Origin: a virus
Virus record (IMG/VR): IMGVR_UViG_3300019890_000002
Location: 1-31,772 of that record
Length of the DNA stretch: 31,772 nucleotides
Strand: one strand, 5' to 3'
Shown here: in pieces, positions 3,324 to 30,460 of the stretch
Position numbering within the stretch: the stretch's first letter is position 1
Layout of the letters: each line of letters opens with the position of its first letter
Position numbers and translations under genes: made by a program
Notes under the pieces: generated by a model
What the model saw: only the letters and a program-made list of their open reading frames with translations
Databases searched by the model: none
Told to the model about the DNA's origin: nothing

Positions 3324-3640
3324 GCGGCATCACCCGGGTCACCGAGAACGAGGTCACCGACCACCGCGCTCTCCATCGGGCTCCGGCCGCGACGCTTGGC
3401 CCTGGCGTCCCTGGCGAAGTCCATGTCGTTCCTGATCTGGCACATGGCCTTGGCCATCCGGACGTCGGGCGGCTGCTGCAGCTGGCGCTGGCGGGCGGTC
3501 CAGGTGCGCCACCACGCGATCTGCTGGTGCTTCTCTTCGATCTCCGCTATGGCGACTGCCGCTTCGGCGCGACCGTCTCGCAGGCCGGCCTGGTAGGCGC
3601 ATTCGAGGCAGTGATGCAGGGCCAGCTCCTGGGCGCTCAT
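3320..3640 (-). CDS. Hypothetical protein (106 aa)
   Basis: Coupled ORF (ATGA at 3320-3323 and 3637-3640). Confidence 0.65.
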   Translation of the reverse strand: MSAQELALHHCLECAYQAGLRDGRAEAAVAIAEIEEKHQQIAWWRTWTARQRQLQQPPDVRMAKAMCQIRNDMDFARDARAKRRGRSPMESAVVGDLVLGDPGDAA

Positions 3641-4008: not shown

Positions 4009-4367
4009 GGCGTCGCCTCCCCGACCGGGTCCGTCTGCGAGATGTCGAACAGGCAGATGACCCGCATCCTGGTGATGACGGTGCCGTCCGGGTTCTTCTC
4101 AGTGGCGCGATCCGGGTCGGTCCTGGTGTGGGGCGCCACCATCCGGATGGCCTTCTCGCCCGAGCGGACTTTCCGGCCAGCCTGCAGCCATCCGTTATAG
4201 GCGTGCAGTGACGTGGCGGTGGCCCGCTGGAGCCAGAGCAGCTTCAGGTTCCGCTCGGAATACCGGCCCGTCCAGCGGATAAGGAACGCGGCCACGTCAG
4301 GCTGGGCCGAGTCAACGGCATCCGCCTGCTCGATCAGCGACTGGGCCGTGATCTTCTGGCCGGTCAT
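4005..4367 (-). CDS. ArdC-N-terminal-like (DUF1738-type) ssDNA-binding protein
   Basis: YSERNLKLLWLQRATATSLHAYNGWLQAGRKVRSGEKAIRMV resembles the ArdC N-domain signature (YS..N..LL..Q....T...W...G..V.KGEK). Confidence 0.5.
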   Translation of the reverse strand: MTGQKITAQSLIEQADAVDSAQPDVAAFLIRWTGRYSERNLKLLWLQRATATSLHAYNGWLQAGRKVRSGEKAIRMVAPHTRTDPDRATEKNPDGTVITRMRVICLFDISQTDPVGEATP

Positions 4368-4579
4368 GCCGCATCACGGACCGGGCGCAGCAGCAGGCCG
4401 AGGCGCTCATATGCTTCGTCGGTCAGCGATGGCGCGTTCTGGACAGCTCGCTTGATGGCTGCGGCGACTGTCGCCTCGGCCAGTTCGAGCCTGGCCCGCT
4501 CAACCAGTTCGATGTTCTCCGGGTGCCGGCGTACGGCCTGCCCTAGGCGTCCGCGCGCCTGGGCGGTACTGAGTGCCAC
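4364..4579 (-). CDS. Hypothetical protein (71 aa), first gene of the early operon
   Basis: GTG start at 4579 and ATGA overlap with the next gene. Preceded by a 219-bp lower-GC non-coding region. Confidence 0.6.
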   Translation of the reverse strand: MALSTAQARGRLGQAVRRHPENIELVERARLELAEATVAAAIKRAVQNAPSLTDEAYERLGLLLRPVRDAA

Positions 4580-16348: not shown

Positions 16349-17074
16349 TCAGAAATCCACCTTCACCGTGTTGCGGGCGAACATCACTGCGAATGTCGCC
16401 GAGGTGAAGGTGCCGGAGGTGACGACCTCGATGTAGCGGTCCACCGTCCCGGTCACCGCGACCCGCTGGGCACCCGCAGTGGTCGCCGCGGTGAAGGCGA
16501 TCAGGTCGGTGAACGTGCTGTTGTCCGTCGAGTGCCGCACCTTCACCGTCACCGAGGTCCCGGTGATCGCAGTCACCTGCAGGTAAGCCTGGGCACCGAA
16601 GGAAGTGCCGGCCGCCTCGTCTTTCGAGGTATGGGTCGTCGCCGTGGTGTCAGTGATCAGGCCGGCGGTGAGCAGCTCGCCCCACTCCAGGCCGTACGAG
16701 TTCGACTGGACTTCGATCTTGAAGGACAGCGAGCCGTCCGCACCGCGGGTCGGGTCATAGTTCAGCTGCTTGCCATTGATACTGAACGCCGGGTTGCCGA
16801 TGGCAGGTGAGGCGAAATAGCCGGACCCGATGACGTCCGTGGCAGGCAGGGTTTTCAGCACGGCGTGCTCCTGTCCCGTGCCGATGTTGAACCACGAGGT
16901 GAACTGCAGGTCACCGCTGCGCAGGCCGCCGATGCGCTCGGTGGCGAACGACTTGATGCCGGTCACGTCCAGTGGAGCCGGACCGCCGGAGATGGAGTCC
17001 AGGGAGCCGACGTCGCCGGACAGGTCGTGCCCGCTGATCAGGAACGTCGCACCGAGGCCGGACTGCTTACTCAT
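16349..17074 (-). CDS. Major tail (tube) protein candidate (241 aa)
   Basis: Position between the neck genes and the chaperones. Thr/Ser/Gly-rich beta-type sequence. Has a paralog at 15457-15879. Confidence 0.6.
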   Translation of the reverse strand: MSKQSGLGATFLISGHDLSGDVGSLDSISGGPAPLDVTGIKSFATERIGGLRSGDLQFTSWFNIGTGQEHAVLKTLPATDVIGSGYFASPAIGNPAFSINGKQLNYDPTRGADGSLSFKIEVQSNSYGLEWGELLTAGLITDTTATTHTSKDEAAGTSFGAQAYLQVTAITGTSVTVKVRHSTDNSTFTDLIAFTAATTAGAQRVAVTGTVDRYIEVVTSGTFTSATFAVMFARNTVKVDF

Positions 17075-17544
17075 AAGCTCACCTGCTCAAAGAGATCGTT
17101 AACGAGAACCGGCATCACGATGACCATCACCCGGTAGATGCGGCCGTCCATGTTCACGTAGCCAGCGGCTGCCGACAGTGCCTGGCCGTGCTGGCCGAGC
17201 AGGTCCACGTTCCGGGTGCCACCGGCGCCGCCTAGCTCGAACTGGCCGGTGTAGTCATCCAGCAGGCCGCAGACCGCTCCGAGGATGTTCGGGTCAATGT
17301 CGTCCTGCGGCTCGCCGAGCATGTTGCTGTAGACCCGGATGTGGAAAGCCACCCGCCCGGATGTCGCGGCCAGGCCCGACGAGGTGACCGGGTCGATGGT
17401 GTCCACCCAGATCGCGCAGTACAGCCCGTTTCCTGGTGCGCTTTTGGGCTCATGGGTGTTGACGCGCTCGAAGTAGCCGATCGCCATGGCGTGGCTGACG
17501 AGAGCGTTCAGCAGGTCGCGCACCGCGGCGCCGTCGAAGCTCAC
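17071..17544 (-). CDS. Neck or tail-terminator-like protein (157 aa)
   Basis: Called on synteny (between the gp10-like and tube genes) and overlapping start/stop codons. Confidence 0.45.
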   Translation of the reverse strand: MSFDGAAVRDLLNALVSHAMAIGYFERVNTHEPKSAPGNGLYCAIWVDTIDPVTSSGLAATSGRVAFHIRVYSNMLGEPQDDIDPNILGAVCGLLDDYTGQFELGGAGGTRNVDLLGQHGQALSAAAGYVNMDGRIYRVMVIVMPVLVNDLFEQVSL

Positions 17545-17957
17545 GGCGTGCCGCCCATCTGGACGATGAACTGGTCCAGGCTGCCCTGGGCGATGTCCTT
17601 GGCTTCCTTGCGCAGCTGCGCCCGGGTCCGGCGGAACTGGTGGTAGCCCTTGAACCGGGTCGAGCTGTTGCGCTTCGACTCACCCTCAAGCCAGGGCCCG
17701 TAGACGATGCCGCCGTCATCCACGATCTGGTCGTTATAGGTGGTCATGCGGGTCCGGAAGGTGCCGGCGTAGTGGCCGGTGGAGCGCCCGGTCTTGTCCA
17801 TCTTGAGGGCGCGCTCCATGAGGACGTCGACCCCGCGCTCGGCGACATCCTTCTTCGCCTTGTCGAGCCAGCGGAACATGGCTGCGGTGGCCCTGCCGTC
17901 GAAGACCGGCCCGGACTGGCTGGTGTTGACGGTGACGTTGATGCGGGACTTGGCCAT
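17541..17957 (-). CDS. HK97 gp10-family head-tail joining protein
   Basis: From ATG 17957: MAKSRINV...GHYAGTFRTRM...GIVYGPWLEGESKRN...FKGYHQF. The YG.WLE core is typical of the gp10 family. Confidence 0.6.
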   Translation of the reverse strand: MAKSRINVTVNTSQSGPVFDGRATAAMFRWLDKAKKDVAERGVDVLMERALKMDKTGRSTGHYAGTFRTRMTTYNDQIVDDGGIVYGPWLEGESKRNSSTRFKGYHQFRRTRAQLRKEAKDIAQGSLDQFIVQMGGTP

Positions 17958-17958
17958 G

Positions 17959-19014
17959 TCACACGACCCGCACCCGGGACTTGCGCCCATAGCGGGCGCA
18001 GGCGCGGGCCTGAAGGTCAGCCAGGCCAGCGCCAGAAGCGTTACGCGTGGTATCGCCGGTGCCCACGGTGCGCGCGTAGCCGGAGGTCTTCTGCAGCACC
18101 GTGTTCTCGGCCAGGGCGACAGCCAGCTCGGTGATCAGCGGCGGGGGGACATGCCGGGAGACCGCAGCCGCTGAACTGTGCGGCGCCGCGGTGGTGCCCA
18201 GTGCGCCACGGGCGGCAGACAGCTGCCGGTTCGCATAGATCGTGCCCGAGGTGTGCGCGGTGAGGATCGTGCCTTCCCAGGCGCGCTTGACGACCAGGGC
18301 GCCGCCGGTCGTGTCGCTGATGTACATCCGTTCAGCGTCGAGGAGCAGCACCTCGCCGGGACTGAACACGGTGACGTCAGGGACCGCGACCAGGTTGTCG
18401 TTCGCCTGCGCGGTAGCGGGCCCGGTGAAGCTCACCCCGGTGCTGACCATGGCCCGGTCTGTGACGAGCAGCCGCTCAGAGCCGATGAGCAGGACGTCAC
18501 CCACGCCGGCCCGGGAGCCGTCTGTAACGGTGATCGTGGTGTCGTCGTCGGCCGCATCAGCGGACAGCGCACCAGCTGGGGCAGCCTGCGCGGTGTAGCC
18601 CCAGGTGCCGGTGATCGCCACGTCATGCTGGGGGGTGGGACCTGAACCGAACGCCGCGTTTGTGGAACGGTCCAGCTCCATGTAGACGTACGGCTCGTTA
18701 GCTTCCTTATCCACCGGCTCGAAGAAAATGTCGTCCAGCGGGATCGTCACGCCCCCGGTGGTGACCAGTGTCGCCACGATCAGGTCGTACTGCTCGAACC
18801 AGATACGCCACGGGTAGGCACCCTGGAAGTTGGGCCAGTCGAAATACTTGATGCCGTCTTCCGGATAGAACCGGCGGTGCAGGATGCCGTAGATGTCGTT
18901 CGCGGCGGCCTGGATGGCGTTGTCCACCAATGAGATCGAGCGCTGCGTGGGATGAAAATCCAGCGCCAGCATCACTTCATCCCGCGTGCAATAGCACGGC
19001 GAACTAACCGCCAT
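17959..19014 (-). CDS. Head-tail adaptor-like protein with a large insertion (351 aa)
   Basis: N-terminal YCTRDEVMLAL is typical of gp6-like connectors. Synteny also supports the call. Confidence 0.45.
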   Translation of the reverse strand: MAVSSPCYCTRDEVMLALDFHPTQRSISLVDNAIQAAANDIYGILHRRFYPEDGIKYFDWPNFQGAYPWRIWFEQYDLIVATLVTTGGVTIPLDDIFFEPVDKEANEPYVYMELDRSTNAAFGSGPTPQHDVAITGTWGYTAQAAPAGALSADAADDDTTITVTDGSRAGVGDVLLIGSERLLVTDRAMVSTGVSFTGPATAQANDNLVAVPDVTVFSPGEVLLLDAERMYISDTTGGALVVKRAWEGTILTAHTSGTIYANRQLSAARGALGTTAAPHSSAAAVSRHVPPPLITELAVALAENTVLQKTSGYARTVGTGDTTRNASGAGLADLQARACARYGRKSRVRVV

Positions 19015-19092
19015 CCTGGACCCTGCTTTCTTGCCCGAGAACCCGGCGATCTGAGCGAGCCACCGGGTGGGACTGGCTGCCTTCAGGATAGC

Positions 19093-19104
19093 TGGTCTAG
19101 ACCA
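19093..19104. promoter_or_regulatory. Perfect palindrome TGGTCTAGACCA (DasR/HutC-type GntR operator-like) in the 117-bp gap inside the late operon
   Basis: Sequence context is gcTGGTCTAGACCAtt. The palindrome is identical to the 12-bp core of the Streptomyces dre element. Confidence 0.45.
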
Positions 19105-19131
19105 TTGGTACTAGCGCTGACCTGCAGTGGT

Positions 19132-19434
19132 TCAGAGGGCGGCTGGTTCCACCTCCCAGGAGTCCACCCCGATGGCCTGCACAGTCCCGGTGCCGGTCCA
19201 TTCGACGATCCATAGCTGTCTCGCCGGGCCGGCCCAGCCGCTGGTGTCCAGATCAGCGTGATACGCGCCGGTGCCGTCTTTCACGATTGGCGAGTCGGGA
19301 TAGGTGACGGTGGTGGTGTCCCCCGCGTCGGCCTTGTACTGGAGCACCACCGAACTGGGGTCGGCGGGAGTCCCGCTGGTGTCGGTGTACGCAGCCGAGC
19401 TGCGGATCAGTGAACCGGACATGTATGTGTTCAT
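19132..19434 (-). CDS. Hypothetical protein (100 aa), Ig-like beta composition
   Basis: ATGA overlap with the upstream 885-aa gene. Confidence 0.6.
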   Translation of the reverse strand: MNTYMSGSLIRSSAAYTDTSGTPADPSSVVLQYKADAGDTTTVTYPDSPIVKDGTGAYHADLDTSGWAGPARQLWIVEWTGTGTVQAIGVDSWEVEPAAL

Positions 19435-22088
19435 AGCGCGCTCCCTACCAGTACGTGCTCGACGAGGGCTGAGGTGACGGTGACCTTCGCGGCGGTGTTG
19501 CTGACCTGCACTTGCCTGAGAAGAACGGACGTGACGGTCACTTCCGCGGCGGTGTTACTGAGCTGAACGGCGCTGGGCTGCGCGTGGGTGACGGTGACAG
19601 CCCCTGGGGTCTGTATCTCGGAGCCGCTCACTGTTATGGCGGGCAGCGCCAGGCTGCCCGCAGCGGTGACCGGCGCGATGACTGCGGCGGTGGCCGCCAG
19701 GGTGCTGTGCGGGAGGGTCAGGCTGCCGGCAGCCGTGCTTGTCTCAGTGGCCGTGCCAGCCAGGCCGGGGACGGCCACAGCCACTGAACCTGCGGCGGTG
19801 CTCGTCTCAGTAACGGTGACTGCCAGCGCGCTGTGCGGGAGGGCGACGGAGCCAGCGGAGGTGTTCTCCATGCTGGCCACGCCAGCCAGGCCCGCTGCGG
19901 AGAGCGCCGTCGAGCCGGCGGACGTGGACTCTTCAGCGGCTGCGCCAGAGAGACCCGCAGCGGGGAGCGCGAGGGAGCCAGCAGCCGTGGATTCTTCGGT
20001 GGCGCTCCCCGACATGGCCGTGGCAGGCACGGCCATCAAGCCTTCAATGCTCCCCGCCGGGGTTTCGGTGGCCGTGCCCAGCAGGCTGACCGCCGGCAGC
20101 GCCGCGCTGCCAGAGCTGGTGGACTCTTCAGTGGCGCTGCCGGCCAAGGTGCCTGCAGGCAGCGCGATGGAGCCAGAGCCGCCGGGGGTGGTAGCCGTTG
20201 CCGTGCCGGCCAGGGTGGTGACGGGGAGGGCCGCTGAACCGGCAGCCGTGGACTCTTCGCTGGCGTCCCCTGACAGGCCCGCAGCGGGCAGCGCCAGGGA
20301 ACCTGCGGACGTGGACTTCTCGGTGGCGGTCCCGGACATCACGGTCCGCGGGAGCGCGATGGAGCCGGCGCACGACGACGAGGACGCTGCCCCGGACAGC
20401 CCTCCTGCGTGCAGTGCGGCGCTGCCGGTGGATGTGGATGCCTCAGTAGCAGCGCCGGTGAGGGCACCTGCGCGGAGGGCGAGACCGCCTGAACATGACG
20501 AGGACGAGCCAGTCCCCGACGTGGCGGTCCGCGGGAGCGCCAGGCTCCCCGTGGCCTTGGTCGTCTCGGTGACGGTGACAGCGAGGCTGTAGCGCCGCGT
20601 AGCCGTAGATCCGGTGGATGTGGACTTTTCAACGGCGGCGGCGCTGATGCCGTAGCGCCGGACCGCGGCCGACCCGGTGGACGTGGTCGCCTCGGTGACG
20701 GTGCCCGCGATACCGGCCTTCGGGAGCGCCACGGAGCCGGTGGAGGTGTTAGACGTCGTCGCCAGCTTGATGACGGCGATACAGGCGGCACCGTTAGCGT
20801 CCGCAGAAGGAGTCCACGAGCAGGTGACGCCACCGCTGCTCGTGTTCATGCTGGCGACACCGACGTCCTGGAAACTGTTCCCGTCGATGGACGCGGCGGT
20901 GTTCTTGACGAACCCGGCACCCGCTACCGTCCATGTCGCTGATGCCCAGTCCGCGATCAGGCAGAGGGCCAGCTCGCCTGCCCCGGCGACAGCGGACGTG
21001 GTGCCCGCGCTGACGTTCTCGATGCCTTCCCCGGGTGGGGTGGCTGCGACGGACACGTCGAGGCAGCCGCTGCCCGCGGAGGCGTCCAGTCCGCTGTATT
21101 CAGCCGCGGTCCAGCCGTATTCCGAAGGACTTGGCGTCGCCCCGGCGACGGTGATCGTCAGCGTGCCGGTACTGGTAGCGACGGCGGTCCAGATGTCACC
21201 GTAAATGTTGTCGGCGACGATGCTATTACTGATCAATTTCGTATAGAGATTGCCCTGCGAGTCGGTCACCGAGCTGACGTCGCCACTGCCGAAGTTGCTG
21301 CCGGTGAAAACGAAGACCCTGTTCCCGCTGGTGACGCTCGACCCGAATGTGGCGGCTATGGTCGCCGTTGTGCTCGGGGTGGACTTCAGGGACTGCGCCA
21401 GCGCCCAGGCCGGCGTTACTGGCGGGGAGACCACGAGAATGAGCGCCGACTCGGTCGTGGACGTGCCGTGCGCCAGGGCAACGCTGAGCGTGCTGCCGGA
21501 CGAGGGTGCGGACGAGTCCCAGAACACGGCCATCTGGGACCGGGCCGAGGCGGTCTGGTTGGTGGTGCACGCGGTCCACCCGGACGGCGTGGTCCAGGTG
21601 ATCGTGGCAGCGGTGGTGCCGTGGCCGCAGACAATCCCGGCGAGCGCGAAGCAGCCGCCGGACGGCACGTTCATGGTGGTCGCGGGAGACAGGGTGCCGG
21701 TCGTGCCGGTTGCGGTGCCGTCCGTCGCGGCCACCGGGGTGCCACCGCCGCTGTCGGACAGCACGAACATGACACAGGCGATGGTGGCGTCCGCCGCGGT
21801 CCCAGTTTCAGTCCCGTTGAAGACGGGGGCGGTGTCAGTGCCCGCCGCGACCTTCGTGTAGTACGCGGTGACGTCCCGGCTGGAACCGGTGACCGACTGG
21901 ATCAGTGTCCACCCGGATGGGGCCGCACCGAGTACCCCCGTGGTCGTGCCGTACACCGTGACCACGCCGACGAGCAGGTTCCCCGCGGTGCGGGTCTGCC
22001 CGGTGCCCCACGTTGCAGTGACCGTCTGCGTCGTGGTGGTGAACGCCGCCGACGCGACAGCAGGCGTGCCGACCGAGGAGACGGTCAT
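19431..22088 (-). CDS. 885-aa repeat protein: two roughly 220-aa N-terminal domains plus about 18 tandem 21-aa Ser/Thr/Ala/Gly repeats
   Basis: Continuous GC3-rich ORF with RBS GGGAGGTGAG. Repeat unit is T-S-x-G-S-x-A-L-P-x-x-G-L-x-G-x-A-T-E-x-S. Confidence 0.8.
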   Translation of the reverse strand: MTVSSVGTPAVASAAFTTTTQTVTATWGTGQTRTAGNLLVGVVTVYGTTTGVLGAAPSGWTLIQSVTGSSRDVTAYYTKVAAGTDTAPVFNGTETGTAADATIACVMFVLSDSGGGTPVAATDGTATGTTGTLSPATTMNVPSGGCFALAGIVCGHGTTAATITWTTPSGWTACTTNQTASARSQMAVFWDSSAPSSGSTLSVALAHGTSTTESALILVVSPPVTPAWALAQSLKSTPSTTATIAATFGSSVTSGNRVFVFTGSNFGSGDVSSVTDSQGNLYTKLISNSIVADNIYGDIWTAVATSTGTLTITVAGATPSPSEYGWTAAEYSGLDASAGSGCLDVSVAATPPGEGIENVSAGTTSAVAGAGELALCLIADWASATWTVAGAGFVKNTAASIDGNSFQDVGVASMNTSSGGVTCSWTPSADANGAACIAVIKLATTSNTSTGSVALPKAGIAGTVTEATTSTGSAAVRRYGISAAAVEKSTSTGSTATRRYSLAVTVTETTKATGSLALPRTATSGTGSSSSCSGGLALRAGALTGAATEASTSTGSAALHAGGLSGAASSSSCAGSIALPRTVMSGTATEKSTSAGSLALPAAGLSGDASEESTAAGSAALPVTTLAGTATATTPGGSGSIALPAGTLAGSATEESTSSGSAALPAVSLLGTATETPAGSIEGLMAVPATAMSGSATEESTAAGSLALPAAGLSGAAAEESTSAGSTALSAAGLAGVASMENTSAGSVALPHSALAVTVTETSTAAGSVAVAVPGLAGTATETSTAAGSLTLPHSTLAATAAVIAPVTAAGSLALPAITVSGSEIQTPGAVTVTHAQPSAVQLSNTAAEVTVTSVLLRQVQVSNTAAKVTVTSALVEHVLVGSAL
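19614..20750 (-). repeat. About 18 in-frame tandem repeats of roughly 63 nt (21 aa)
   Basis: GS.ALP units begin at aa 451, 472, 493, 514, 534, 555, 575, 596, 617, 639, 660, 679, 704, 725, 746, 767, 788 and 811 of the 885-aa protein. Confidence 0.85.
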
Positions 22089-22115
22089 GACTCACCTCCC
22101 AGAGGCGAGCCCCGA

Positions 22116-22526
22116 TTAGCTCTGCAACTGCGTGATCGTGAAACTGGAGCAGGACACCGTCGCACCGGAGCTGATCGTCAGCGAGTTCAGGTTCAGGTCA
22201 GCAGCCGAGGTGCCCACCGAACCGGTCGCCACCACCGTGGAATCGTCGGTCTTCACCAGCGCGAAATATCCGGCGGTGCCACCGACGGCGCTCGTGTCCG
22301 AGGTAATCGAGTTCGCTGTCGCGGTGACCGTCCCGGCCGAAGCGCTGGACGCGCCAAACGCGGTCGAGCCGAACGTCAGTTTCGCGATCTTCGTTCCGGT
22401 CAGCGACCCGTCCACCGCAGGCTGCCCGCCGGAGTAGATCTCCAGGAAGCCGGAGTTCAGCAGCGTGGCGATAGCGTCAAGATTGGTCTTCAGCTGCGTC
22501 TGGTAAAACTTCGGGGCATTAGCCAT
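22116..22526 (-). CDS. Hypothetical virion-associated protein (136 aa)
   Basis: GC3-rich ORF in the capsid-proximal island. Ser/Thr/Ala/Gly-rich. Confidence 0.6.
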   Translation of the reverse strand: MANAPKFYQTQLKTNLDAIATLLNSGFLEIYSGGQPAVDGSLTGTKIAKLTFGSTAFGASSASAGTVTATANSITSDTSAVGGTAGYFALVKTDDSTVVATGSVGTSAADLNLNSLTISSGATVSCSSFTITQLQS

Positions 22527-22532
22527 GGCTGC

Positions 22533-22736
22533 TCACATCCCTGCCTGAGTATCTGGGTCATAGTCGCGGGGATACTGCCAGCCGTCGAAACGGCAGTAGA
22601 GAATCCCTGGTGCTTGCGGTGGCCCCCACTGCAACGGCTCACCGTCATTCGGGCACGCCACCGGGGGCTGCGCCCGGTAGTACTCGATGTACGCAGCCCG
22701 CTCTTTAAGCGTGGTGTCCAGTGCCCACCAGGACAT
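22533..22736 (-). CDS. Hypothetical protein (67 aa)
   Basis: GC3-rich ORF, 1 nt from the upstream stop codon. Confidence 0.55.
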   Translation of the reverse strand: MSWWALDTTLKERAAYIEYYRAQPPVACPNDGEPLQWGPPQAPGILYCRFDGWQYPRDYDPDTQAGM

Positions 22737-22737
22737 G

Positions 22738-23100
22738 TCAGCCCGCCTTGTCCCGGTTCGCGTACGCGTCGAGAACCAGCTGGGGGAGCTTGCCCCGGGC
22801 CGCTACCTCAAGGCCCTGGTCCGCGGCCCAGGCGCGGACCGCAGCAGTAGGCGAGTCGTCCTCAGGCTGCTCCGCCTCCGGCGCAGGAAGGCTGACGCCG
22901 CCGCTGGCCGTCACCCCGGAATCCTCAGCTTCCGGCGCGTCCTGCGCTGCCCAGCGGTTGCTGGTACCACCGCTCGTGGCCTTCGGCATTTCACGCTCCT
23001 TTCCGCACATTGGGCACCGGGTCAGGGCAGAAGCGATGGCCAGGCAGCCGCAGCTGTCACAGGTCCACATCTGATACCCCCACGACGATTGCCATGTCAC
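22738..23100 (-). CDS. Zinc-ribbon / Lsr2-type DNA-binding-domain fusion protein (120 aa)
   Basis: N-terminus CDSCGC...CPMCG, an acidic linker, then C-terminus AAVRAWAADQGLEVAARGKLPQLVLDAYANR. This matches the Lsr2 C-domain pattern (IREWA...G..VS.RGRIP..V..AY). GTGA overlap with the GT gene. Confidence 0.65.
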   Translation of the reverse strand: MTWQSSWGYQMWTCDSCGCLAIASALTRCPMCGKEREMPKATSGGTSNRWAAQDAPEAEDSGVTASGGVSLPAPEAEQPEDDSPTAAVRAWAADQGLEVAARGKLPQLVLDAYANRDKAG

Positions 23101-23786
23101 AAGGTCACCACCTTCGCGTGACCCACCCTCACTTCACTGGCGACATGAATTGGAACGCCGGCCCGCGCCGCCTTACGGCAGAACGACAGGTCCTCGCCAT
23201 ACGAGATCCCGTCGTCCGTTTCCTCACTGAACGGGGCCGGCCCGACCGCCTCGAACGCCGAGCGGTGGATGAGCACGCACCCGGTGCCCACTGCCGCGAC
23301 TTTCTGCACCGGGTCCATGGGCGTCTTCACGCTCCACGGGATCAGCTGCCCGAAATGGTCGGTGTAAGCCGCCCAGTGCAGCGAGGGCCATTCCCCCACC
23401 GGGTGCATACCGGGGTCGTGGGCCACCACGGGGACGGCGGCAGCGAGGATGGGGCGCCTCGCCGGGTCGGCGAGGCGCAGCAGTGCAGGCAGCGTCTCCG
23501 GGCCGAACACGGTGTCGCTGTCGGTGAACCACAGCCATTCCTGCTGGCTGGCCATGAGTGCCGAGGCTGCCGCGTTCCTGGTTACTGACAGGTTCGGCCC
23601 GGACGGCTGGTCGAGGAACGACCCCAGCAGTGCGGCGTTGTCGCTGGTGAGCATGGCGATCACCGACGACATGAACGCAGCCCGCACGTCCTCACCGTGC
23701 AGCCACGCCCAGAAGACGGTACCTGAGCGCAGCGAAGCCTCCCTGGCCGCCGCAGCGGACGGGGAGACTTCGGCCACGATTGTCAT
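23097..23786 (-). CDS. GT-A fold (family 2-like) glycosyltransferase
   Basis: DxD motif in LWFTDSDTVF. Also GTGCVLIHRSAFE and YGEDLSFCRKAARAGVPIHV...VGH. Confidence 0.75.
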   Translation of the reverse strand: MTIVAEVSPSAAAAREASLRSGTVFWAWLHGEDVRAAFMSSVIAMLTSDNAALLGSFLDQPSGPNLSVTRNAAASALMASQQEWLWFTDSDTVFGPETLPALLRLADPARRPILAAAVPVVAHDPGMHPVGEWPSLHWAAYTDHFGQLIPWSVKTPMDPVQKVAAVGTGCVLIHRSAFEAVGPAPFSEETDDGISYGEDLSFCRKAARAGVPIHVASEVRVGHAKVVTL

Positions 23787-23788
23787 GG

Positions 23789-24241
23789 TCAGGCGCTCAC
23801 GATCGCCAGGTTCTCCGGCTTCCGCTGCACGGTCAGGTCGTACAGGATCGCCGTAAGGTCGGCCGTGTTGACCCCGGTGACCTTGATGTAGTCGTAGCCG
23901 TCAGCCAGCTCGGACACCAGGAAGTCCACGTACGACGCGTAGCTCGACGTAGCGGCGACCGTCAGCGTCGAGGTCGACCAGGACCCGGCGTGCGAGGTCC
24001 AGGCGGCGGTGGAGGCCACGCGGGAGTACCAGGTGCCCGGCTGACCGAACCCGCTGGCCGTGGTGGCGTTGTTGTAGCTGCCGCCAAACGACGTTGCGGC
24101 GGTGAACGCCAGCGTCGCCGAGCCGGTGGCACTCGTGCGGGCGACAAACGCGATGCCGGACGCGTTCTTGAGGCTGATGCCGATGCCGGAAGCGCCCGGG
24201 ATAACATCCAGGACCCTCCCCAGGGCCTTCATTCCTGCCAT
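23789..24241 (-). CDS. Hypothetical protein (150 aa) directly after the capsid gene; decoration-protein candidate
   Basis: Called on position and Ser/Thr/Ala-rich composition. Confidence 0.5.
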   Translation of the reverse strand: MAGMKALGRVLDVIPGASGIGISLKNASGIAFVARTSATGSATLAFTAATSFGGSYNNATTASGFGQPGTWYSRVASTAAWTSHAGSWSTSTLTVAATSSYASYVDFLVSELADGYDYIKVTGVNTADLTAILYDLTVQRKPENLAIVSA

Positions 24242-24289
24242 TTCAGACTCTTTTCTTGGAAGTGGGCGTTACTGCACTTCTGCTAATTC

Positions 24290-24317
24290 GGGGGCGGGGG
24301 ATTCATTGCCCGCCCCC
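24290..24317 (-). terminator. 9-bp all-GC hairpin (GGGGGCGGG-N10-CCCGCCCCC) just downstream of the capsid gene stop
   Basis: Read directly from the sequence. No U-tract follows. Confidence 0.4.
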
Positions 24318-24324
24318 TACCTGG

Positions 24325-25740
24325 TCAGGAACCGACCGCCAGGCCGACGAACGCCGACAGGGTGCTGGTCGAGCCGTTGTGCGGGGTGAGGGCGCTCTGC
24401 AGCCAGGGCCGGCCGTCGACGCGCTCGATGATCCGGTATGCGGTCTGGTCGTTCTGGAACGCGTAGTGCTCCGAGGCCGAGATGGCCATGGCCTGCCGGT
24501 CACCGATCAGGTAGTAGGACAGGTCCACGAAGGAGATGTCACCGACGGTGCCCAGCTTCGGCACCTTCTCGGTGAAGATCACCGGGCGGCCCATGATGTT
24601 CACCGGAGGTGCATCCGAGGCGTCCCGGGCAGCCCAGCCACCCAGCCAGATGCCGGGGTTGGTCTGGCTCATCAGGGCCAGCTGCGGGAACGTGTCGATG
24701 GATGCGATCCATACGGCGGTGGACAAACTCTGCGGCAGCATCCGGGCATACATGCCGACGATGTCAGCCCAGGCGATCAGGTTGGCACCGGCGCGGGCGG
24801 CCTGCACGTAGGACGGGTTCTGGGCACCGATGCAGCCCATCGGGGTGCCAGCGCCGGTCTCGGTCAGGAACGCGACATCCTCAGACCAGGCGAGGCCGGC
24901 GGGGACCCGGGTGTCGAACCAGCCCGAGAAGGCCGGTGCGTCGGCGAGCAGCTCGTTCGGGACCTTGAAGAAGCCGGTCAGCTTCTTCGCGTCCAGCACC
25001 ACCCGGCCGAAGCTGGCCTGCGACTCGGTGAGACTCGAAGACTCCTCGGCCCAGTAGTACTCGACGCCGCCGAACAGGCTGGACACGTGGCTGGTGTCGT
25101 CCACGGTGGGGATCGGCACCCGCAGCGTGCTCATCGGGATAACCGTCGCGCGGGACCGGACGATGGACTCTTCCAGGGCCAGCTGCAGAAGCTCGGACCG
25201 CATGATCTCGGGGACCAGGAAGCCACCGGCGCCCGGGTCCTCAGACCCGAAGCTGTTCTGGAAGGACCGGACGTTCTCCAGCTTCTGGAGCAGCGTCTTG
25301 CGGCCCGGGTTCGAGGTCGGCCGGGCTTCCTCACGGATCGCCTGGCAGTACTCGCCGATGGAACCGAACCGGTCCTCAGCCTTGAACGTGGCCTCGAAGC
25401 CCGCACCAGGCGAGTACTTGTTGTATACGGCGCCCTTCCCGCGGCTGATCACCGGGGTGCCGTCCGCGCTGAGCCCTGGCTTGCCGTTCACCAGGCCGGC
25501 ACGGTTCAGCGGATGGCCGCCACCCAGGCCGTTTTCCCTGACGAACTCGGCCATGCCGAGCTGCAGCTGCTCGCTGATCTGCTGCTTGAGGCTGCCGTCC
25601 TTCTCCATGGTGACAACCGCGTACTTGCTCAGGAACTCCTTGCGTGTGTCCGGGTCGGACATCACGTTCTTGAGCACCTGCGGGGTGTTCAGCATCTCCT
25701 CCAGCTCAGCCGAGCCGGTCGGAATGACGATCTTGGTCAT
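24325..25740 (-). CDS. Major capsid protein, HK97 fold, with N-terminal delta/scaffold-like domain
   Basis: 471 aa directly after the protease. GGFLVPEIMRSELLQLALEESIVRSRATVIPM...ISFVDLSYYLIGDRQ is typical of HK97-family capsids. Confidence 0.9.
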   Translation of the reverse strand: MTKIVIPTGSAELEEMLNTPQVLKNVMSDPDTRKEFLSKYAVVTMEKDGSLKQQISEQLQLGMAEFVRENGLGGGHPLNRAGLVNGKPGLSADGTPVISRGKGAVYNKYSPGAGFEATFKAEDRFGSIGEYCQAIREEARPTSNPGRKTLLQKLENVRSFQNSFGSEDPGAGGFLVPEIMRSELLQLALEESIVRSRATVIPMSTLRVPIPTVDDTSHVSSLFGGVEYYWAEESSSLTESQASFGRVVLDAKKLTGFFKVPNELLADAPAFSGWFDTRVPAGLAWSEDVAFLTETGAGTPMGCIGAQNPSYVQAARAGANLIAWADIVGMYARMLPQSLSTAVWIASIDTFPQLALMSQTNPGIWLGGWAARDASDAPPVNIMGRPVIFTEKVPKLGTVGDISFVDLSYYLIGDRQAMAISASEHYAFQNDQTAYRIIERVDGRPWLQSALTPHNGSTSTLSAFVGLAVGS

Positions 25741-26894
25741 TACTTGCTCCCTTCCGGAAGGTCGAGCCGGAACAGTTCCGGGACGGCGAGTTCCGCCCAG
25801 ATGTCTTCGTCGGACTGGCTTGAAGGCGAGGCCATCGAGCCGTCACCGCCCCAGTTGTCCGGGATGCGTGACGACAGGCCGAGGGCCTTAGCGCGTTTGG
25901 TGATGTGGCGCCGGATCGCGTCATGACCTGAGCCGCCCCGGCCTACCGCATGGATCGCGTTGTCCAGATCCTCGGCGTCAGCGATGGGGTAGGAGCCGTC
26001 CTCCATCGCCTGGCCGTTCTTGGCCATGCGGTCGCGGTCGTCCTGGTTGTACTTCGCGTTGCGGGGCAGCTGGCCGTACTGGCCGGTCTGGTCTGGCTTA
26101 GCCTTGGGCTTCGGCGGGATGGGCTTGATCTGCTTGCCGTCCGCATCCCAGTAGTCGTGGTCCTTGTCGCCTTCAGGCGTGCTGTCGTCGTCGCCGTCGC
26201 CGTCCGGGTCGAACCGCACCTTGCCGTCGGGGTCCTGCACCCAGCCGTCACCGAGCTGCTTCGGCTGCCCGCCGGGGCCGTTGTACACCGACAGGTCCCA
26301 GGCGCTGCCAGGGGCTTCCTCGCCGAGAATCTTGTCCGCCAGGCCGGCGTCGACGGCTTCGCGGTCGCTGTACCAGGTTTCGGTGCGCATCGCGGTGCGC
26401 CACGTCTCCGCCGGCTGGCCAGTGCGGTCCGAGTAGATGGACGCGATGTTGTCGCTGGCCTTGTCGAGCAGGCCGGCCATCTCCCGCATGTCCGCGGCGT
26501 TGCCGATGGCCATCCCGAAGCCGTCGTGGATCATCAGCTGGGAGTGCGGCGCCATGGCCAGCTCACCCGGGGACGCGGCCTGGCAGATGAACGACGCAGC
26601 CGAGGCGGCCAGGCCGTCCACCACGATGGATACGGTGCCAGGGTGCTGCCGGAGGGCGTTGTAGATGGCGATGCCGTCGAAGACATCGCCGCCAGGGCTG
26701 TTCACGTGCAGCTCGATGTCACCGGGGAGACCACCCAGCTCGTTCACGAAGTCCTGGGCGGACACTCCGAACATGCCGATCTCGTCGTAGACGGAGACCC
26801 GGGCGGGCCCGGTGGCGTTCCGCACGACCTTGTACCAGCCGGCTCGCTGCAGGTTGGACAGCCGGCGCGTGGTCCGCAGCGGGCGCTTGTCCAT
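25740..26894 (-). CDS. ClpP-type (S14) prohead protease with a roughly 190-aa acidic/Pro-Lys C-terminal extension
   Basis: SVYDEIGMFGVSAQDF...ELHVNSPGGDVFDGIAIYNAL...VDGLAASAASFI. The C-terminal part carries GSYPIADAEDLDNAIHAVGRGG...ITKRAKALGL. Confidence 0.9.
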   Translation of the reverse strand: MDKRPLRTTRRLSNLQRAGWYKVVRNATGPARVSVYDEIGMFGVSAQDFVNELGGLPGDIELHVNSPGGDVFDGIAIYNALRQHPGTVSIVVDGLAASAASFICQAASPGELAMAPHSQLMIHDGFGMAIGNAADMREMAGLLDKASDNIASIYSDRTGQPAETWRTAMRTETWYSDREAVDAGLADKILGEEAPGSAWDLSVYNGPGGQPKQLGDGWVQDPDGKVRFDPDGDGDDDSTPEGDKDHDYWDADGKQIKPIPPKPKAKPDQTGQYGQLPRNAKYNQDDRDRMAKNGQAMEDGSYPIADAEDLDNAIHAVGRGGSGHDAIRRHITKRAKALGLSSRIPDNWGGDGSMASPSSQSDEDIWAELAVPELFRLDLPEGSK

Positions 26895-28285
26895 CAGAAC
26901 CTCCCGGCCAGCTCGACTGGCTGGTGACCGTTTGAAAGGACCTTGCGGACCCGTGCAGCCATCTGCTCCGGCTGGTCGGCCGACTCGCCCGGCTGTGGCG
27001 GGCCAGCTGGTGCTGCGGGGGCGCCGGGAACCCAGCCGGGCGGCAGGGCGGGCAGCTGGGTGGCCTTCTCGGCGATGCCCATGTCCGGCAGGCCGACCGT
27101 TTCGAGAACGTCATGCGGGTCATAGCCAGCGGAGACCAGGAGCTGCACCGCGGTGGACTTGTTCTTCAGCTCCATCGCGTCCTGCTCCCGGTTCGTCGGC
27201 ACCGGGGTGACGTAATCGAATTCCACGCCCTCACCGGCGGAGCCGAACATGGGCAGGAAGACGTTGTTGAGCATGTCCTTCTTGCGGTCGAGGCGCGGGA
27301 CCACGCCCCAGCTGGAGAAAACTTCCTCGCCGGTTTGCGCATTAGCGCGGTTAACGTCATCGGACACACCAAGCATCACTTTGTGCATCCGGTACGCCTC
27401 ACGGACAATGTCGCGGGTCAGGTTCCGCAGGTTAGCGAAGTCCATGTCGGTGACCGACATCTGGTTCGGCTGCCAGGTGGCGCCGTTCTCCAGGATTGCC
27501 ACCCGGTGAGCGCGGGCCACACCCCGGTGCGCTTCACGCCAGCGGTTCGAGAAGTTCTCGTATTCGGTGTCGTCCCATGAGTCGGGGACGGTGATGATGC
27601 CGTCCGGGCGCGCGGAGTTGATGAAGAAGTTCCGGTTCCAGTTGGCGCTGTACTTCGAGGCGTCAACGTCCACGAGGACGGACTGGACGGGGCCCAGCCC
27701 GTGCATCGGGTCCAGCGGGTTCGGGTAGACGACCTGAATGACCTCATCAGGCGCCAGGGGGATCTTCTCCAGCCCATCAGGACTGGTGTAAATCCAGCCC
27801 TTGATGTAGTTCTCCGGGTCCGGTACCGGTTCCATCCGGTCGGGGCGCACCGGCCAGATACTGGTCGGGAAGTTCACGCCACCGTCGCGGCCCAGGACCC
27901 AGTAGGACTCGCCGGTCAGGTCCAGGTACATCTGGTCGGCCTCGAACAGCCGGGTCCGCGTGTAGAAGTCGTTCGGCTTGTTGACCAGCGACAGCGCGGC
28001 ATGCTGGACCACTTCGGTGCGCTGGTCCACCGGGTTGTCGTTCGTGGTGTAGCGGACCCGTGCATCCTTCGGCTGCTTGCGGAACAGGTGCCACTCGACC
28101 CGGGAGCAGGATTCGGCGTACAGGGAAACGCAGGAGTAGACGGTGCCCATCACGCTGTAGGCGTGCATGAGGTTTTCGGAGCCCGCGACGCTGGACGTGA
28201 GATAGCTGAGGCTGTGGAACTGGGACGCCGCCATCGGCACCGGAGGGTTCCCGGCATTGCGCAGCCGCCGCAGTGCGCTTTTCAC
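26894..28285 (-). CDS. Portal protein, HK97 family
   Basis: 463 aa, GTG start, 1-nt overlap with the protease gene. Typical portal length and synteny (ESYWVL, FANLRNLTRDIVREAYRMHKVMLG). Confidence 0.88.
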   Translation of the reverse strand: MKSALRRLRNAGNPPVPMAASQFHSLSYLTSSVAGSENLMHAYSVMGTVYSCVSLYAESCSRVEWHLFRKQPKDARVRYTTNDNPVDQRTEVVQHAALSLVNKPNDFYTRTRLFEADQMYLDLTGESYWVLGRDGGVNFPTSIWPVRPDRMEPVPDPENYIKGWIYTSPDGLEKIPLAPDEVIQVVYPNPLDPMHGLGPVQSVLVDVDASKYSANWNRNFFINSARPDGIITVPDSWDDTEYENFSNRWREAHRGVARAHRVAILENGATWQPNQMSVTDMDFANLRNLTRDIVREAYRMHKVMLGVSDDVNRANAQTGEEVFSSWGVVPRLDRKKDMLNNVFLPMFGSAGEGVEFDYVTPVPTNREQDAMELKNKSTAVQLLVSAGYDPHDVLETVGLPDMGIAEKATQLPALPPGWVPGAPAAPAGPPQPGESADQPEQMAARVRKVLSNGHQPVELAGRF

Positions 28286-28557
28286 TTCTCGTCCGCAATG
28301 ACGTGCTCAACGAGGATCAGCGAGAGCCCGGTGCAGATCCAGCCGGCTACTGAGTTCGCCGTGAAGATGCCTACGTCAACGCACCCGGCACCAAGGACAG
28401 TGAGCGGGATCGAGGCGAGGTTCCGGAGTGCAGCCCGGTGCGGCTCGATGACTTTCCGGCCGGTGCGGACACTGGCACTGGCGATTCCTGCGGACCACTG
28501 AGAGAGCCTCTGGCCGAAACCGGAGCCGTGGGTCCTGGGAATCGCCGTGACTGCCAC
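28282..28557 (-). CDS. Two-TM membrane protein (91 aa), first gene of the late operon
   Basis: GTG 28557 with GGAG upstream and a GTGA overlap with the portal gene. Hydrophobic stretches IPLTVLGAGCVDVGIF and VAGWICTGLSLILV. Confidence 0.55.
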   Translation of the reverse strand: MAVTAIPRTHGSGFGQRLSQWSAGIASASVRTGRKVIEPHRAALRNLASIPLTVLGAGCVDVGIFTANSVAGWICTGLSLILVEHVIADEK

Positions 28558-28589
28558 TCATCACTCCGAGCGGTTAACATTCAGGAAAG

Positions 28590-28613
28590 AGATCGTTAGC
28601 CGGCTAGCGATCT
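28590..28613. promoter_or_regulatory. 24-bp near-perfect palindrome AGATCGTTAGCCGGCTAGCGATCT in the 63-bp divergent terminase/structural intergenic region
   Basis: 11 of 12 pairs are complementary. It shares the half-site GATCGTTAGC with the palindrome at 173-195. Confidence 0.5.
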
Positions 28614-28641
28614 ACCTGAAGTGTGGCCGACGGAGCTGCAT

Positions 28642-28941
28642 ATGGCAACTCGGAGTTTGCGCGACGCTGACGAGCTTCTGCTGCCCTGCGTGAACGCAGC
28701 GATAGCAGCACTGGAATTGCAGGACCGTGATCAGGCAATTGCTGCCCTAGCGCGTCGCTATGCGTCCGTGATTGACGACTGCGCCAACCCGGAATGGGGT
28801 ATGCGCTGGATCGCGCCGCTCCTGCATGAAGCCCTGGAATCCCTCGGGGCCACCCCGGTTGCCCGGTCCAAGGTCAAGGAAGGGAAGCAGTTCAGTGGCA
28901 CCGGCCAGCTCGCCGCGCTCCGGTCCGCGCGTCGCGCGTAA
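28642..28941 (+). CDS. Terminase small subunit candidate
   Basis: ATG 28642 with GGAG 6 nt upstream. ALARRYASVIDD...IAPLLHEALESLGATPVARSKV...LAALRSARR resembles actinophage TerS. Lies directly upstream of TerL. Confidence 0.55.
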   Translation: MATRSLRDADELLLPCVNAAIAALELQDRDQAIAALARRYASVIDDCANPEWGMRWIAPLLHEALESLGATPVARSKVKEGKQFSGTGQLAALRSARRA

Positions 28942-30460
28942 GGCGCCCTGCCGGCTACGGGACTGCGATGAGCCGGCAGTTGCCCAGCGCGTCTGTGATG
29001 GACACCTCCAGGAGCGCTTCCCTGCCGAGTGGGCCAGGCTTCACAAGATCACCGGGAAGGTCGAGCCCCGGCTGTTCACCGAGCCGCTCCGGCCGCTGAG
29101 CCGGAAGACTTCCCGCGGCTACGAGATCATCGACTTCGCCGAACTGGCCGGCGAGCCACTGCTGCCCTGGCAGAAGCACGCGGTGATCCGCGCCATGGAG
29201 CTGCTCACCGATGGCAGCTACCGGTTCCGGGTCATTCTCATCCTGGTTGCCCGGCAGAACGGCAAGAGCCAGCTCAAGCGCACTGTGAGCCTCTGGCGCC
29301 TCTACATGGAGCCGCGGAGCTTCATCCTCGGCTGCGCCCAGGACGTCTCGCTGGCCCGGGAGCAGTGGAACTACGCCCAGGAGACCATCCTGGCCTGCCC
29401 GGACCTGAAGAACGAGCTGGCCAAGGTCCGCAACGTCAACGGCGACGAGCAGTTCATGCTCAGCAACGGGTCCAGGTACAAGATCGCCGCCTCGAACCGC
29501 AAGGCCGGGCGTGGGCTCTCCATCGACGAGCTGAACATCGATGAGCTGCGTGAGCAGCGGTCCTGGGATGCCTGGTCTGCGCTGTCCAAGACGACGATGG
29601 CCCGGCACAACTCCCAGATCTGGTGCATGAGCAACGCCGGCGACGACGAGAGCGTGGTGCTCAACCAGCTGCGGGATGCCGCGCTGTCCGGACGCGACCC
29701 GTCCATCTGCCTGCTGGAGTGGTCCGCAGCAGACGGATGCGAGCTGGACGACGAGGTCGCCTGGGCGCAGGCCAACCCGGGACTCGGGCACACCGTTTCG
29801 CACGCTGCGATCCGGTCAGCGCTCGGCACCGACCCTCCTGGCGTGTTCCGCACCGAGGTGCTGTGCCAGAAGGTGGACCAGATAGATGGCGCCGTCGACT
29901 ACAACGCCTGGAAGGCGTGCGCGGACCCCTCCGGCTCGCTGGAGGGCCTGAAAGGCCGGGTCAGCTGCGCCTTCGACATCGCCCCAGACGGCGCCCATGC
30001 CACCCTGGCTGCCGCAGCCCAGCTGGACGACGGCCGGACCCGGGTTGAGGTCGTGCGGGCCTGGACGAGCACCGACCAGGCCCGCGACGAGATGCCGGAG
30101 CTGCTCGACCGGATCAGGCCGGTGTCCATCGCCTGGTATCCCACCGGCCCTGGCGCCGCCTTCGCGCCGATGCTGCGCCCCCGGGCCGGCTCGCTGGAGA
30201 TCACCGGGATGAAGGTCGCCGAGGCGTGCCAGGGGCTGGCGGACCTGGTCTCAGCGAGGAAGATCGTGCACGGCGCGGAGGCTCTGCTCGACGCGCATGT
30301 CTCCGGGGCCCAGAAGCTGCCCAGCGGGGACGGCTGGCGGTTCACGCGCCGGGGCGGCGTAGGCCATGTCGATGCTGCCTACGCCGCCGCGGGTGCCATC
30401 TATGTGGCGCTCACCCAGGAGCCCGCGAAGAAGTCCCGGGTCAGATTCATGGCCTACTAG
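28895..30460 (+). CDS. Terminase large subunit
   Basis: LLPWQKHAVIRAMELL and Walker A-like VARQNGKSQL, followed by a nuclease half. The ORF is open from 28772. GTG 28895 (AAGGAAGGGAAG upstream) gives a 47-nt overlap with terS and is the preferred start. Confidence 0.88.
   Translation: MAPASSPRSGPRVARKAPCRLRDCDEPAVAQRVCDGHLQERFPAEWARLHKITGKVEPRLFTEPLRPLSRKTSRGYEIIDFAELAGEPLLPWQKHAVIRAMELLTDGSYRFRVILILVARQNGKSQLKRTVSLWRLYMEPRSFILGCAQDVSLAREQWNYAQETILACPDLKNELAKVRNVNGDEQFMLSNGSRYKIAASNRKAGRGLSIDELNIDELREQRSWDAWSALSKTTMARHNSQIWCMSNAGDDESVVLNQLRDAALSGRDPSICLLEWSAADGCELDDEVAWAQANPGLGHTVSHAAIRSALGTDPPGVFRTEVLCQKVDQIDGAVDYNAWKACADPSGSLEGLKGRVSCAFDIAPDGAHATLAAAAQLDDGRTRVEVVRAWTSTDQARDEMPELLDRIRPVSIAWYPTGPGAAFAPMLRPRAGSLEITGMKVAEACQGLADLVSARKIVHGAEALLDAHVSGAQKLPSGDGWRFTRRGGVGHVDAAYAAAGAIYVALTQEPAKKSRVRFMAY

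Follow-up and report, generated by a model that had tools for sequence, protein, structure and literature searches.

A zinc ribbon fused to an Lsr2-type DNA-binding tail is encoded in the head gene module of an uncultured siphophage

We analyzed a stretch of viral DNA of 31,772 nucleotides (IMG/VR virus record IMGVR_UViG_3300019890_000002, positions 1 to 31,772; the whole stretch is called the window here), which is a small temperate siphophage genome or prophage, and examined a gene in its structural block that encodes a 120-amino acid protein, designated ZnR (Table 1). The protein consists of a RanBP2/NZF-like zinc ribbon, an acidic disordered linker of ~45 residues, and the DNA-binding domain of Lsr2 (Lsr2-C), without the Lsr2 oligomerization domain, and we place high confidence in this three-part anatomy. 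Very probably, the ribbon defines a hitherto undescribed group of small proteins in uncultured siphophages distantly related to Streptomyces phage Dagobah, and Lsr2-C appears to be a portable DNA-binding tail, carried here by an accessory protein of the head module and not by a CgpS-like silencer. The position of the gene in a head slot and the swapping of tails among its relatives suggest a role in connecting DNA with head assembly rather than in gene silencing.

The C-terminal residues 83-114 matched the Pfam family PF23359 (Lsr2_DNA-bd) at 44.2 bits (E 1.2e-11), the gathering cut-off being 26.9 bits, and the same region matched PHROGs 31427, 1223, and 6269, the latter two of which are annotated as Lsr2-like. 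A phmmer search of PDB sequences retrieved the DNA-binding domains of Mycobacterium tuberculosis Lsr2 (6qkq, 6qkp, and 2kng) with E values of 1e-3 to 2e-3, the window segment aligning as AAVRAWAADQGLEVAARGKLPQLVLDAY. Structure 2kng was also the top Foldseek match in the PDB, with a root mean square deviation (rmsd) of 0.9 Å over 32 columns and a probability of 0.99; its E value was 0.25 because the domain is so short. In a fold search of BFVD, only Lsr2-like proteins and noise were returned. The Lsr2 N-terminal oligomerization family PF11774 gave no Pfam match in the window protein, even at E<=10. An earlier note on this DNA, made from the letters alone, had assigned the C-terminus to the Lsr2 DNA-binding domain, with RGK instead of RGR, and the significant profile match and the PDB alignments bear this out: the Lsr2-C of the window is an intact single domain of the RGK variant, the second commonest in the retrieved protein set (13 of 158 Lsr2-C instances, versus 83 of 158 with RGR).

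The N-terminal ribbon has the spacing C14-x2-C17-x-C19...C29-P-x-C32, and in an alignment of 58 cluster representatives W12, C14, C17, C29, P30, and C32 are invariant, with G18, C19, I22, and A23 nearly so. An exhaustive phmmer search over 1.84 billion cluster representatives yielded 161 matches, ~90 of which align to the ribbon module, and the window protein carries the N-terminal family pattern MW-x-C-x(1,2)-C-G-C-x2-IA-x5-CP-x-C (alignments A1, A2, and A5). On these alignments, the ribbon is not a chance pattern. Foldseek placed it with NZF/RanBP2 fingers at TMt values of 0.76-0.86 but E values of 4-9, with an rmsd of ~1 Å over 26 columns to the fingers of Trabid, TAB2, Nup153, and ZRANB2. 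The window protein itself reached no Pfam zinc-finger threshold; two relatives (P0158 and P0161) carry a precomputed PF00641 assignment, and the RanBP2 pattern W-x-C-x(2,4)-C-x3-N-x6-C-x2-C fits the window ribbon save for the Asn and one extra spacing residue. A PDB profile search with the ribbon gave nothing significant, and its best matches, the FAAP20 finger and AcrVIA2 (E ~0.02 over 14-16 residues), were treated as chance. An AlphaFold2 model of the 110-amino acid form, built on a 21-sequence family alignment, gave predicted local distance difference test (pLDDT) values of ~90 in the ribbon and 91-94 in the two C-terminal helices on either side of the RGK loop, against 51-59 in residues 31-70. 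The view taken in the earlier note, that a zinc ribbon and an acidic linker stand in place of the Lsr2 oligomerization domain, is correct.

All sources of the ZnR family are metagenomic (Logan, ENA, and JGI). When the ribbon module was compared by tblastn with 50,697 deposited phage genomes, no member was found, the only matches being at chance level (E >= 0.3), and Megablast of positions 20000-26000 gave no match among deposited phages. A word-indexed protein search with the single sequence returned only the window's own gene call, and with a 58-sequence ribbon profile it returned two proteins; when GTDB genomes were scanned with the ribbon profile, the two matches obtained (Bryobacteraceae and Paenibacillus) were weak and looked unrelated, and no prophage host could be named. 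In IMG/VR, the ribbon profile recovered 20 loci, which share the order portal, protease, capsid, p150, 0-1.8 kb of variable genes, ZnR, (p67), variable genes, p351, p149, p157, and major tail protein. The ZnR gene lies between p150 and p67 or p351 in every one of the 20, over capsid identities to the window of 32-74% (52-74% in 18 loci, 32-39% in L007 and L009). Logan contig L030, which encodes P0130, an independent fusion of ZnR to Lsr2-C, has the identical gene order, and in L001, the nearest relative by capsid protein (73% identity), a syntenic ribbon open reading frame (ORF) directly follows the glycosyltransferase gene and is interrupted by the contig end.

In 11 of the 20 loci the ZnR gene is followed by the small gene p67, which is a separate small ORF in 9; in the remaining two (L005 and L009) the match falls in an ORF that is called differently and sits at the BLAST threshold or slightly over it. 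The p67 product has three Cys in L011, L014, and L018. One protein, P0019, is a natural in-frame fusion of a ZnR N-terminus to a p67 C-terminus, which hints that ZnR and p67 may form a functional pair. Dagobah, the nearest cultured phage by capsid protein (43% identity), has homologues of p150, p67 (gp15), and p351, the last of which we read as a gp6-type head-tail connector, but no ZnR gene. This makes an actinobacterial host probable and suggests that the ZnR gene is core to a sub-lineage yet not indispensable for such heads. In the window the gene is co-oriented with and tightly packed among the structural genes, 1 nucleotide from the next one, and neither promoter-like nor same-strand terminator-like sites were found on its strand within 19000-28800; co-expression with the structural genes can therefore reasonably be inferred. 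The earlier note had spoken of a late operon: the placement in the structural gene block holds, and the lateness of expression follows from it by inference.

Behind the ribbon the family is hypervariable. Most members have an MPKxTSGGxSNAWE-like motif and, after it, a tail of 20-130 residues that is acidic or rich in proline. Intact Lsr2-C tails are found in the window protein, P0005 (46.9 bits), P0008 (51.2 bits, also RGK), P0059 (PKGK), P0130/P0152 (KGA), and P0102, which has lost its ribbon through a gene call from an internal Met; degenerate copies, with RGR changed to AGP, ADP, or DSP, are present in L003 (AGP), P0002, and P0024. A SAP domain above the Pfam cut-off ends P0009, P0013, P0032, P0061, and P0077, a SAP-like tail detected by the family hidden Markov model (HMM) only is found in L005 and L006, and P0003, P0049, P0065, and P0096 carry another helix-hairpin-helix-like motif. 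Most members have no recognizable tail module, the distant ones ending in an aromatic residue after an acidic run. The fusion of ZnR to Lsr2-C recurs in P0005, P0008, P0059, P0130, and L003, and the slot is identical where the context is visible (L003 and L030). The proteins of L003 and L004 are nearly identical at their N- and C-termini and differ by an Lsr2-C insert present in L003 only; the ribbon is therefore the conserved, positionally fixed unit, to which small DNA-binding modules (Lsr2-C and SAP) have been repeatedly added or from which they were lost. Since siblings carry SAP or no DNA-binding module, the core job of the family has no need of Lsr2-C.

The GTG start of the window gene shares the sequence GTGA with the TGA stop of the glycosyltransferase-like gene upstream. 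Most other members start at a Met equivalent to M11, and the 10-residue extension that precedes it in the window is kept in the nearest sub-family (L001, P0059, P0029, P0118, and P0003) with the pattern xWxSPxGY[QR][TM]W; G8 does not vary in alignment A5, where position 9 is kept as Y/F and W12 is preceded by Thr, not Met, in three of the five relatives. The conserved extension and the Thr substitutions make a 120-amino acid reading from GTG 23100 plausible. The public gene call P0001, of 83 amino acids, begins at M38 and leaves out the zinc ribbon, and it is wrong or incomplete; that the ribbon is a non-coding extension of the ORF, as this call implies, was ruled out by protein-level conservation in ~90 clusters and by the syntenic gene of L001. 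At 22987-23001 (- strand), AAGGAG-N6-ATG codes for the conserved peptide K-E-R-E-M-P-K. In all seven loci with an [MV]PK motif (the window, L003-L007, and L009) the M/V codon is ATG or GTG with AAGGAG a few nucleotides upstream, the Val codons at this site being GTG in 4 of 4, and gene callers choose the internal start in both P0001 and P0102. AAGGAG and M38 may be a site of internal initiation, which would give a ribbon-less isoform of 83 amino acids.

We tentatively propose that the window protein is a head-assembly or DNA-packaging accessory factor, a functional analogue of lambda gpFI that would tether phage DNA to an assembly partner; among the explanations considered this is the one we favor, as a possibility and short of a probable one. 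The zinc ribbon would dock on a protein partner of the assembly line (the procapsid, p150, p67, the portal, or the terminase), the flexible acidic linker would space the two ends apart and might also compete, within the molecule, for the DNA-binding face, and the monomeric Lsr2-C would grip phage DNA by the minor groove where it is richer in AT, so that replicated DNA or terminase-DNA complexes would be kept close to the heads being assembled. Because it has a single DNA-binding domain and lacks an oligomerization domain, the protein is predicted not to form filaments or to bridge or silence DNA like Lsr2/CgpS; it would bind DNA only, presumably in AT-richer minor grooves. The proposal draws on the domains, the fixed slot and synteny, the modularity of the tail, the convergence seen in the post-capsid region, the analogy to gpFI, and the tight packing of the operon.

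Several points weigh against it. The protein partner, the presence or absence of ZnR in virions, and DNA binding are predictions. The window protein has no sequence match to gpFI, and the marginal similarity between SAP and gpFI concerns siblings only. Most members are without a recognizable DNA-binding module, and DNA tethering is therefore not the universal mechanism of the family. Dagobah builds a related head without a ZnR gene; the protein is therefore dispensable for the basic architecture. Moreover, the head-tail gene junction is a classic site for morons, and a fixed position alone is no proof of a role in assembly.

The same findings bear on the rival explanations. The earlier note had offered two functional ideas, a dominant-negative counter-silencer of host Lsr2 and a DNA-condensing or packaging factor, and the comparative evidence leans toward packaging or assembly. 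Dominant-negative poisoning of host Lsr2 oligomers was ruled out because the protein has no oligomerization domain (no PF11774 match), which leaves only competition for AT-rich DNA. In such competition an abundant, late-made monomeric Lsr2-C would occupy AT-rich phage sites, e.g., an island at 260-442, and block nucleation or spreading of host Lsr2 filaments, so that the DNA stays free for late transcription and packaging; the ribbon-less M38 isoform could be the free competitor. The intact Lsr2-C without an oligomerization domain would suit this role, as would the island, which is the kind of site that Lsr2-like proteins target (PMC7002338), and the conserved internal Shine-Dalgarno sequence with ATG or GTG before the MPK motif. 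Interference by foreign or truncated silencers has also been raised as a phage strategy (PMC8612146; PMC10066036). However, siblings that occupy this slot bear SAP or lack a DNA-binding module altogether, and therefore anti-Lsr2 action cannot be what retains the gene; the acidic linker and the conserved ribbon are left unexplained, the late timing is odd for relief from silencing, and host Lsr2 promotes, and does not hinder, productive mycobacteriophage infection (PMC10066036). We regard counter-silencing as unlikely. Rather less likely still is a virion-internal or DNA-end protein whose ribbon is anchored in the head or at the portal and whose Lsr2-C sits on the packaged DNA, to be ejected with the genome and to protect or mark it on entry, like SPP1 gp7 or further proteins of the head interior. 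It would reconcile late synthesis with an early-acting function, and it is consistent with the head-module position, the operon coupling, and the DNA-binding tails on three unrelated post-capsid families, but a strongly acidic linker (net -7) is unfavorable beside densely packed DNA, and PHROG, PDB profile, and BFVD searches revealed no homology to known ejection or internal proteins.

A late regulator of transcription or replication, acting on the AT-rich iteron-like island or on AT-rich loci of the host and carried in the structural operon as a moron, has little probability in our judgment. A zinc ribbon with a DNA-binding domain is a common layout of regulators, the island holds CCTAAAT and CATATCTATA repeats, and the head-tail junction tolerates inserted genes, as the glycosyltransferase gene found only in the window and L001 attests; against this, the ribbon resembles RanBP2/NZF fingers, whose usual ligands are proteins or single-stranded RNA, most members have no DNA-binding module, and the slot is kept across phages whose capsids are 52-74% identical to that of the window (32-39% in L007 and L009). 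We see a similarly slim chance that the tail gains and loses short helix-hairpin-helix modules by illegitimate recombination and that Lsr2-C has little or no selected function here. Gain or loss between the close relatives L003 and L004 and the decayed Lsr2-C copies in L003, P0002, and P0024 (AGP, ADP, or DSP for RGR) fit such neutral accretion, but the window copy is intact and far above the Pfam cut-off, and the fusion persists across several clusters defined at 50% identity (P0005, P0008, P0059, and P0130).

Beyond the window, we raise a wider and more doubtful suggestion, namely, that actinobacterial tailed phages carry an unrecognized class of modular head-assembly adaptors analogous to gpFI, each made of a protein-docking anchor, an acidic disordered linker, and a helix-hairpin-helix DNA-binding tail; the anchors would be the zinc ribbon, an 'MRVKMLV' module, or a coiled coil, and the tails Lsr2-C, SAP, or basic peptides. 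If this holds, the DNA-binding domain of a host chromatin protein would have been co-opted in this phage to couple AT-rich phage DNA to packaging, or to enter together with the genome and forestall host Lsr2. Lsr2-like proteins are encoded by many actinophages (PMC10066036, PMC8612146), and the present case separates the Lsr2 DNA-binding domain from the silencing machinery, in a head-morphogenesis slot and on a conserved zinc-ribbon scaffold. A DNA-tethering factor of head assembly or packaging is a testable alternative to the view that a phage Lsr2 is a silencer or a counter-silencer. The analysis also exposes an unannotated family, whose ribbon is dropped from the public calls P0001 and P0102, and the recurring layout could improve the annotation of small 'hypothetical' genes that follow capsid genes.

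The features of the window are summarized in Table 1. Its terminase genes are divergent from the portal/head operon, an unusual arrangement that also holds for L001 (56-1558 (-) versus 3015-4385 (+)) and differs from that of L030 and Dagobah, in which terminase and portal are co-oriented. A small-terminase identity was considered for the ZnR gene and ruled out, as a TerS-like ORF already lies directly upstream of TerL. The glycosyltransferase gene in the head block is confined to the window and L001 among the loci compared and is not conserved with the ZnR gene; glycosylation of neighboring Ser/Thr-rich proteins in the virion is possible. In eight loci (L010-L013, L015, L016, L020, and L021), one to three unannotated paralogous genes of ~150-250 amino acids stand between p150 and ZnR, with one each in L003-L005; their products share the pattern ...LPA(S/T)xxGxLFTVTGGxVxI...GAIxWxxxYxPLDxGAxV and are likely to be head decoration or fibre proteins.

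Table 1. Features of the window and of the ZnR gene, in order of position
Feature	Coordinates	Strand	Remarks
HNH endonuclease	1043-1585	-	
Primase/helicase	2139-3323	-	
Serine integrase	4799-6268	-	
1509-amino acid tail protein	7856-12385	-	
Tape measure protein	12385-14829	-	
Major tail protein	16349-17074	-	
p157	17071-17544	-	
p149	17541-17990	-	
p351	17959-19014	-	
p100	19132-19434	-	
885-amino acid Ser/Thr/Ala repeat protein	19431-22088	-	
Virion structural protein (phrog_3758)	22116-22526	-	
p67, 67 amino acids	22533..22736	-	Degenerate zinc-ribbon-like ...ACPxDGxPL...LYCxFDGxxYPRDxDP; start 1 nucleotide after ZnR stop
ZnR-linker-Lsr2-C gene, 120 amino acids	22738..23100	-	GTG start at 23100; stop codon 22738-22740; ORF list, Pfam and PHROG matches
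Lsr2-type DNA-binding domain, residues 83-120	22741..22854	-	Helix, loop with RGK, helix; Pfam, PDB, Foldseek, pLDDT above 90
Acidic disordered linker, residues 39-82	22855..22986	-	Net charge -7; pLDDT 51-59; includes family motif MPKATSGGxSN and 'SGGVSLPAPE' motif
Four-Cys zinc ribbon, RanBP2/NZF-like: MWTCDSCGCLAIASALTRCPMCGKEREM	22987..23070	-	Invariant residues, pLDDT, Foldseek, PF00641 of relatives
AAGGAG, in frame (codons K-E)	22996..23001	-	6 nucleotides before internal ATG 22987-22989 (M38); sequence reading
10-residue N-terminal extension MTWQSSWGYQ	23071..23100	-	Precedes the family's usual start Met (M11) at 23068-23070
Family-2 glycosyltransferase-like gene, 229 amino acids	23097..23786	-	PF13641 at 34.8 bits; phrog_34859
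p150	23789-24241	-	
Major capsid protein	24325-25740	-	
Protease	25740-26894	-	
Portal	26894-28285	-	
TerS-like ORF	28621-28941	+	Directly upstream of TerL
TerL	28772-30460	+	Divergent from portal

In the C-terminal half of the 885-amino acid protein there are at least 11 repeats of ~21 residues with the pattern ...E(S/T)STxxGSxALPxxxLxG. An HMM of these repeats matched the tails of the ZnR members P0064 (16.7 bits) and P0141 (6.8 bits), while 1 of 1920 shuffled sequences reached 6 bits or more; the window ZnR protein, with its 'SGGVSLP' linker motif, did not score with this HMM, and the match was kept as a lead only. Other ZnR members end in GG(I/L)TLPKxG-like motifs. The repeat-like motif could represent a short linear motif common to these proteins, or a site that the nearby glycosyltransferase modifies. 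The C-terminal third of the 1509-amino acid tail protein matched phrog_5313 (549 bits) and a phosphodiesterase-annotated PHROG (143 bits), and this is probably a host-recognition or depolymerase protein. The AT-rich island at 260-442 has 26% GC, with a minimum GC of 0.22, in a genome of 66% GC; it contains three tandem units (A/T)CCT(A/G)CCTAAAT(A/T)A (the CCTAAAT repeats), two copies of CATATCTATA, and a short palindrome ATCAATTA/TAATTGAT. It is a putative origin or regulatory region, and the place where an Lsr2-type domain would most obviously be expected to bind.

Compared with known systems, the ribbon resembles RanBP2/NZF fingers (PF00641) in W-x-C-x2-C...C-x2-C with nearly equal spacing, and differs from them in that the characteristic Asn is replaced in most ZnR members and that an extra Cys (CGC) is present. 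Lambda gpFI, which is reported to bridge the capsid and the terminase-DNA complex (PMC13595911) and whose family is marked by capsid binding, stimulation of terminase-DNA docking, and absence from mature virions, shares with the window protein the genomic position after the capsid gene and before head-closure/connector genes, as FI lies between E and FII. The layout is also alike, in that a flexible acidic linker joins a small folded module to a helix-hairpin-helix motif, but the order of the modules is reversed: in the gpFI sequence a SAP-like N-terminus (TKDELIARLRSLG...LTGTKEELALRVAEL) leads through an acidic linker into a C-terminal domain. In the window protein a zinc ribbon, with a putative docking partner, replaces the capsid-binding domain of gpFI. 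The window protein matched neither PF14000 nor phrog_92. The SAP region of its sibling P0032 weakly matched PF14000 (E 0.075) and phrog_92, 'DNA packaging chaperone FI' (E 0.0026), and the SAP HMM of the ZnR family scored gpFI marginally at 11.2 bits (E 0.022); in BLASTP of a SAP-bearing sibling versus gpFI the motif was not aligned. The likeness to gpFI is thus an analogy with a weak sequence echo in siblings, and not membership.

With the Lsr2/CgpS silencers (PF11774 and PF23359) the window protein has in common the C-terminal two-helix domain with an R-G-R/K minor-groove loop, at ~44% identity to M. tuberculosis Lsr2 over 32 structure-aligned columns. In contrast to them, it has RGK for RGR and is without the N-terminal oligomerization domain, so that filaments, bridging, and silencing are not expected, and its gene is in a head module, whereas Lsr2/CgpS-type genes are found in lysogeny or nucleotide-metabolism neighborhoods (PMC8612146). 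Other actinophage fusions likewise carry Lsr2-C as a C-terminal tail on an unrelated N-terminal module: the PHROG families of Ku and WhiB end in Lsr2-C, a fusion of Ku to Lsr2-C has been recorded in cluster J mycobacteriophages (PMC8612146), and the best PHROG match of the window, phrog_31427, is the family of gp011 of Thermobifida phage P1312 (308 bits). This protein (L025, 4632-5108), the founding member of phrog_31427 ('unknown function') and annotated as hypothetical, has 158 amino acids and comprises a charged coiled coil, a Ser/Glu-rich linker, and Lsr2-C (RGS). In this cultured phage, as in the window, the gene stands between head and neck genes, namely, capsid-proximal gp008, which on our own reading is a gp6-type connector, and the head-tail adaptor gp012. 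P0108 in turn carries Lsr2-C on an 'MRVKMLVQISG...' module, whose relatives in L027 and L028 directly follow the capsid gene and have acidic tails ending in basic stretches instead of Lsr2-C; for P0142, the IMG/VR search gave no relatives. An anchor, an acidic linker, and a DNA-binding tail thus recur in three unrelated post-capsid families. Unlike the other fusions, the window protein has as its N-terminal module a zinc ribbon from a conserved family of its own. Lsr2-C fusions as such are already known, and the new part is the scaffold and the slot.

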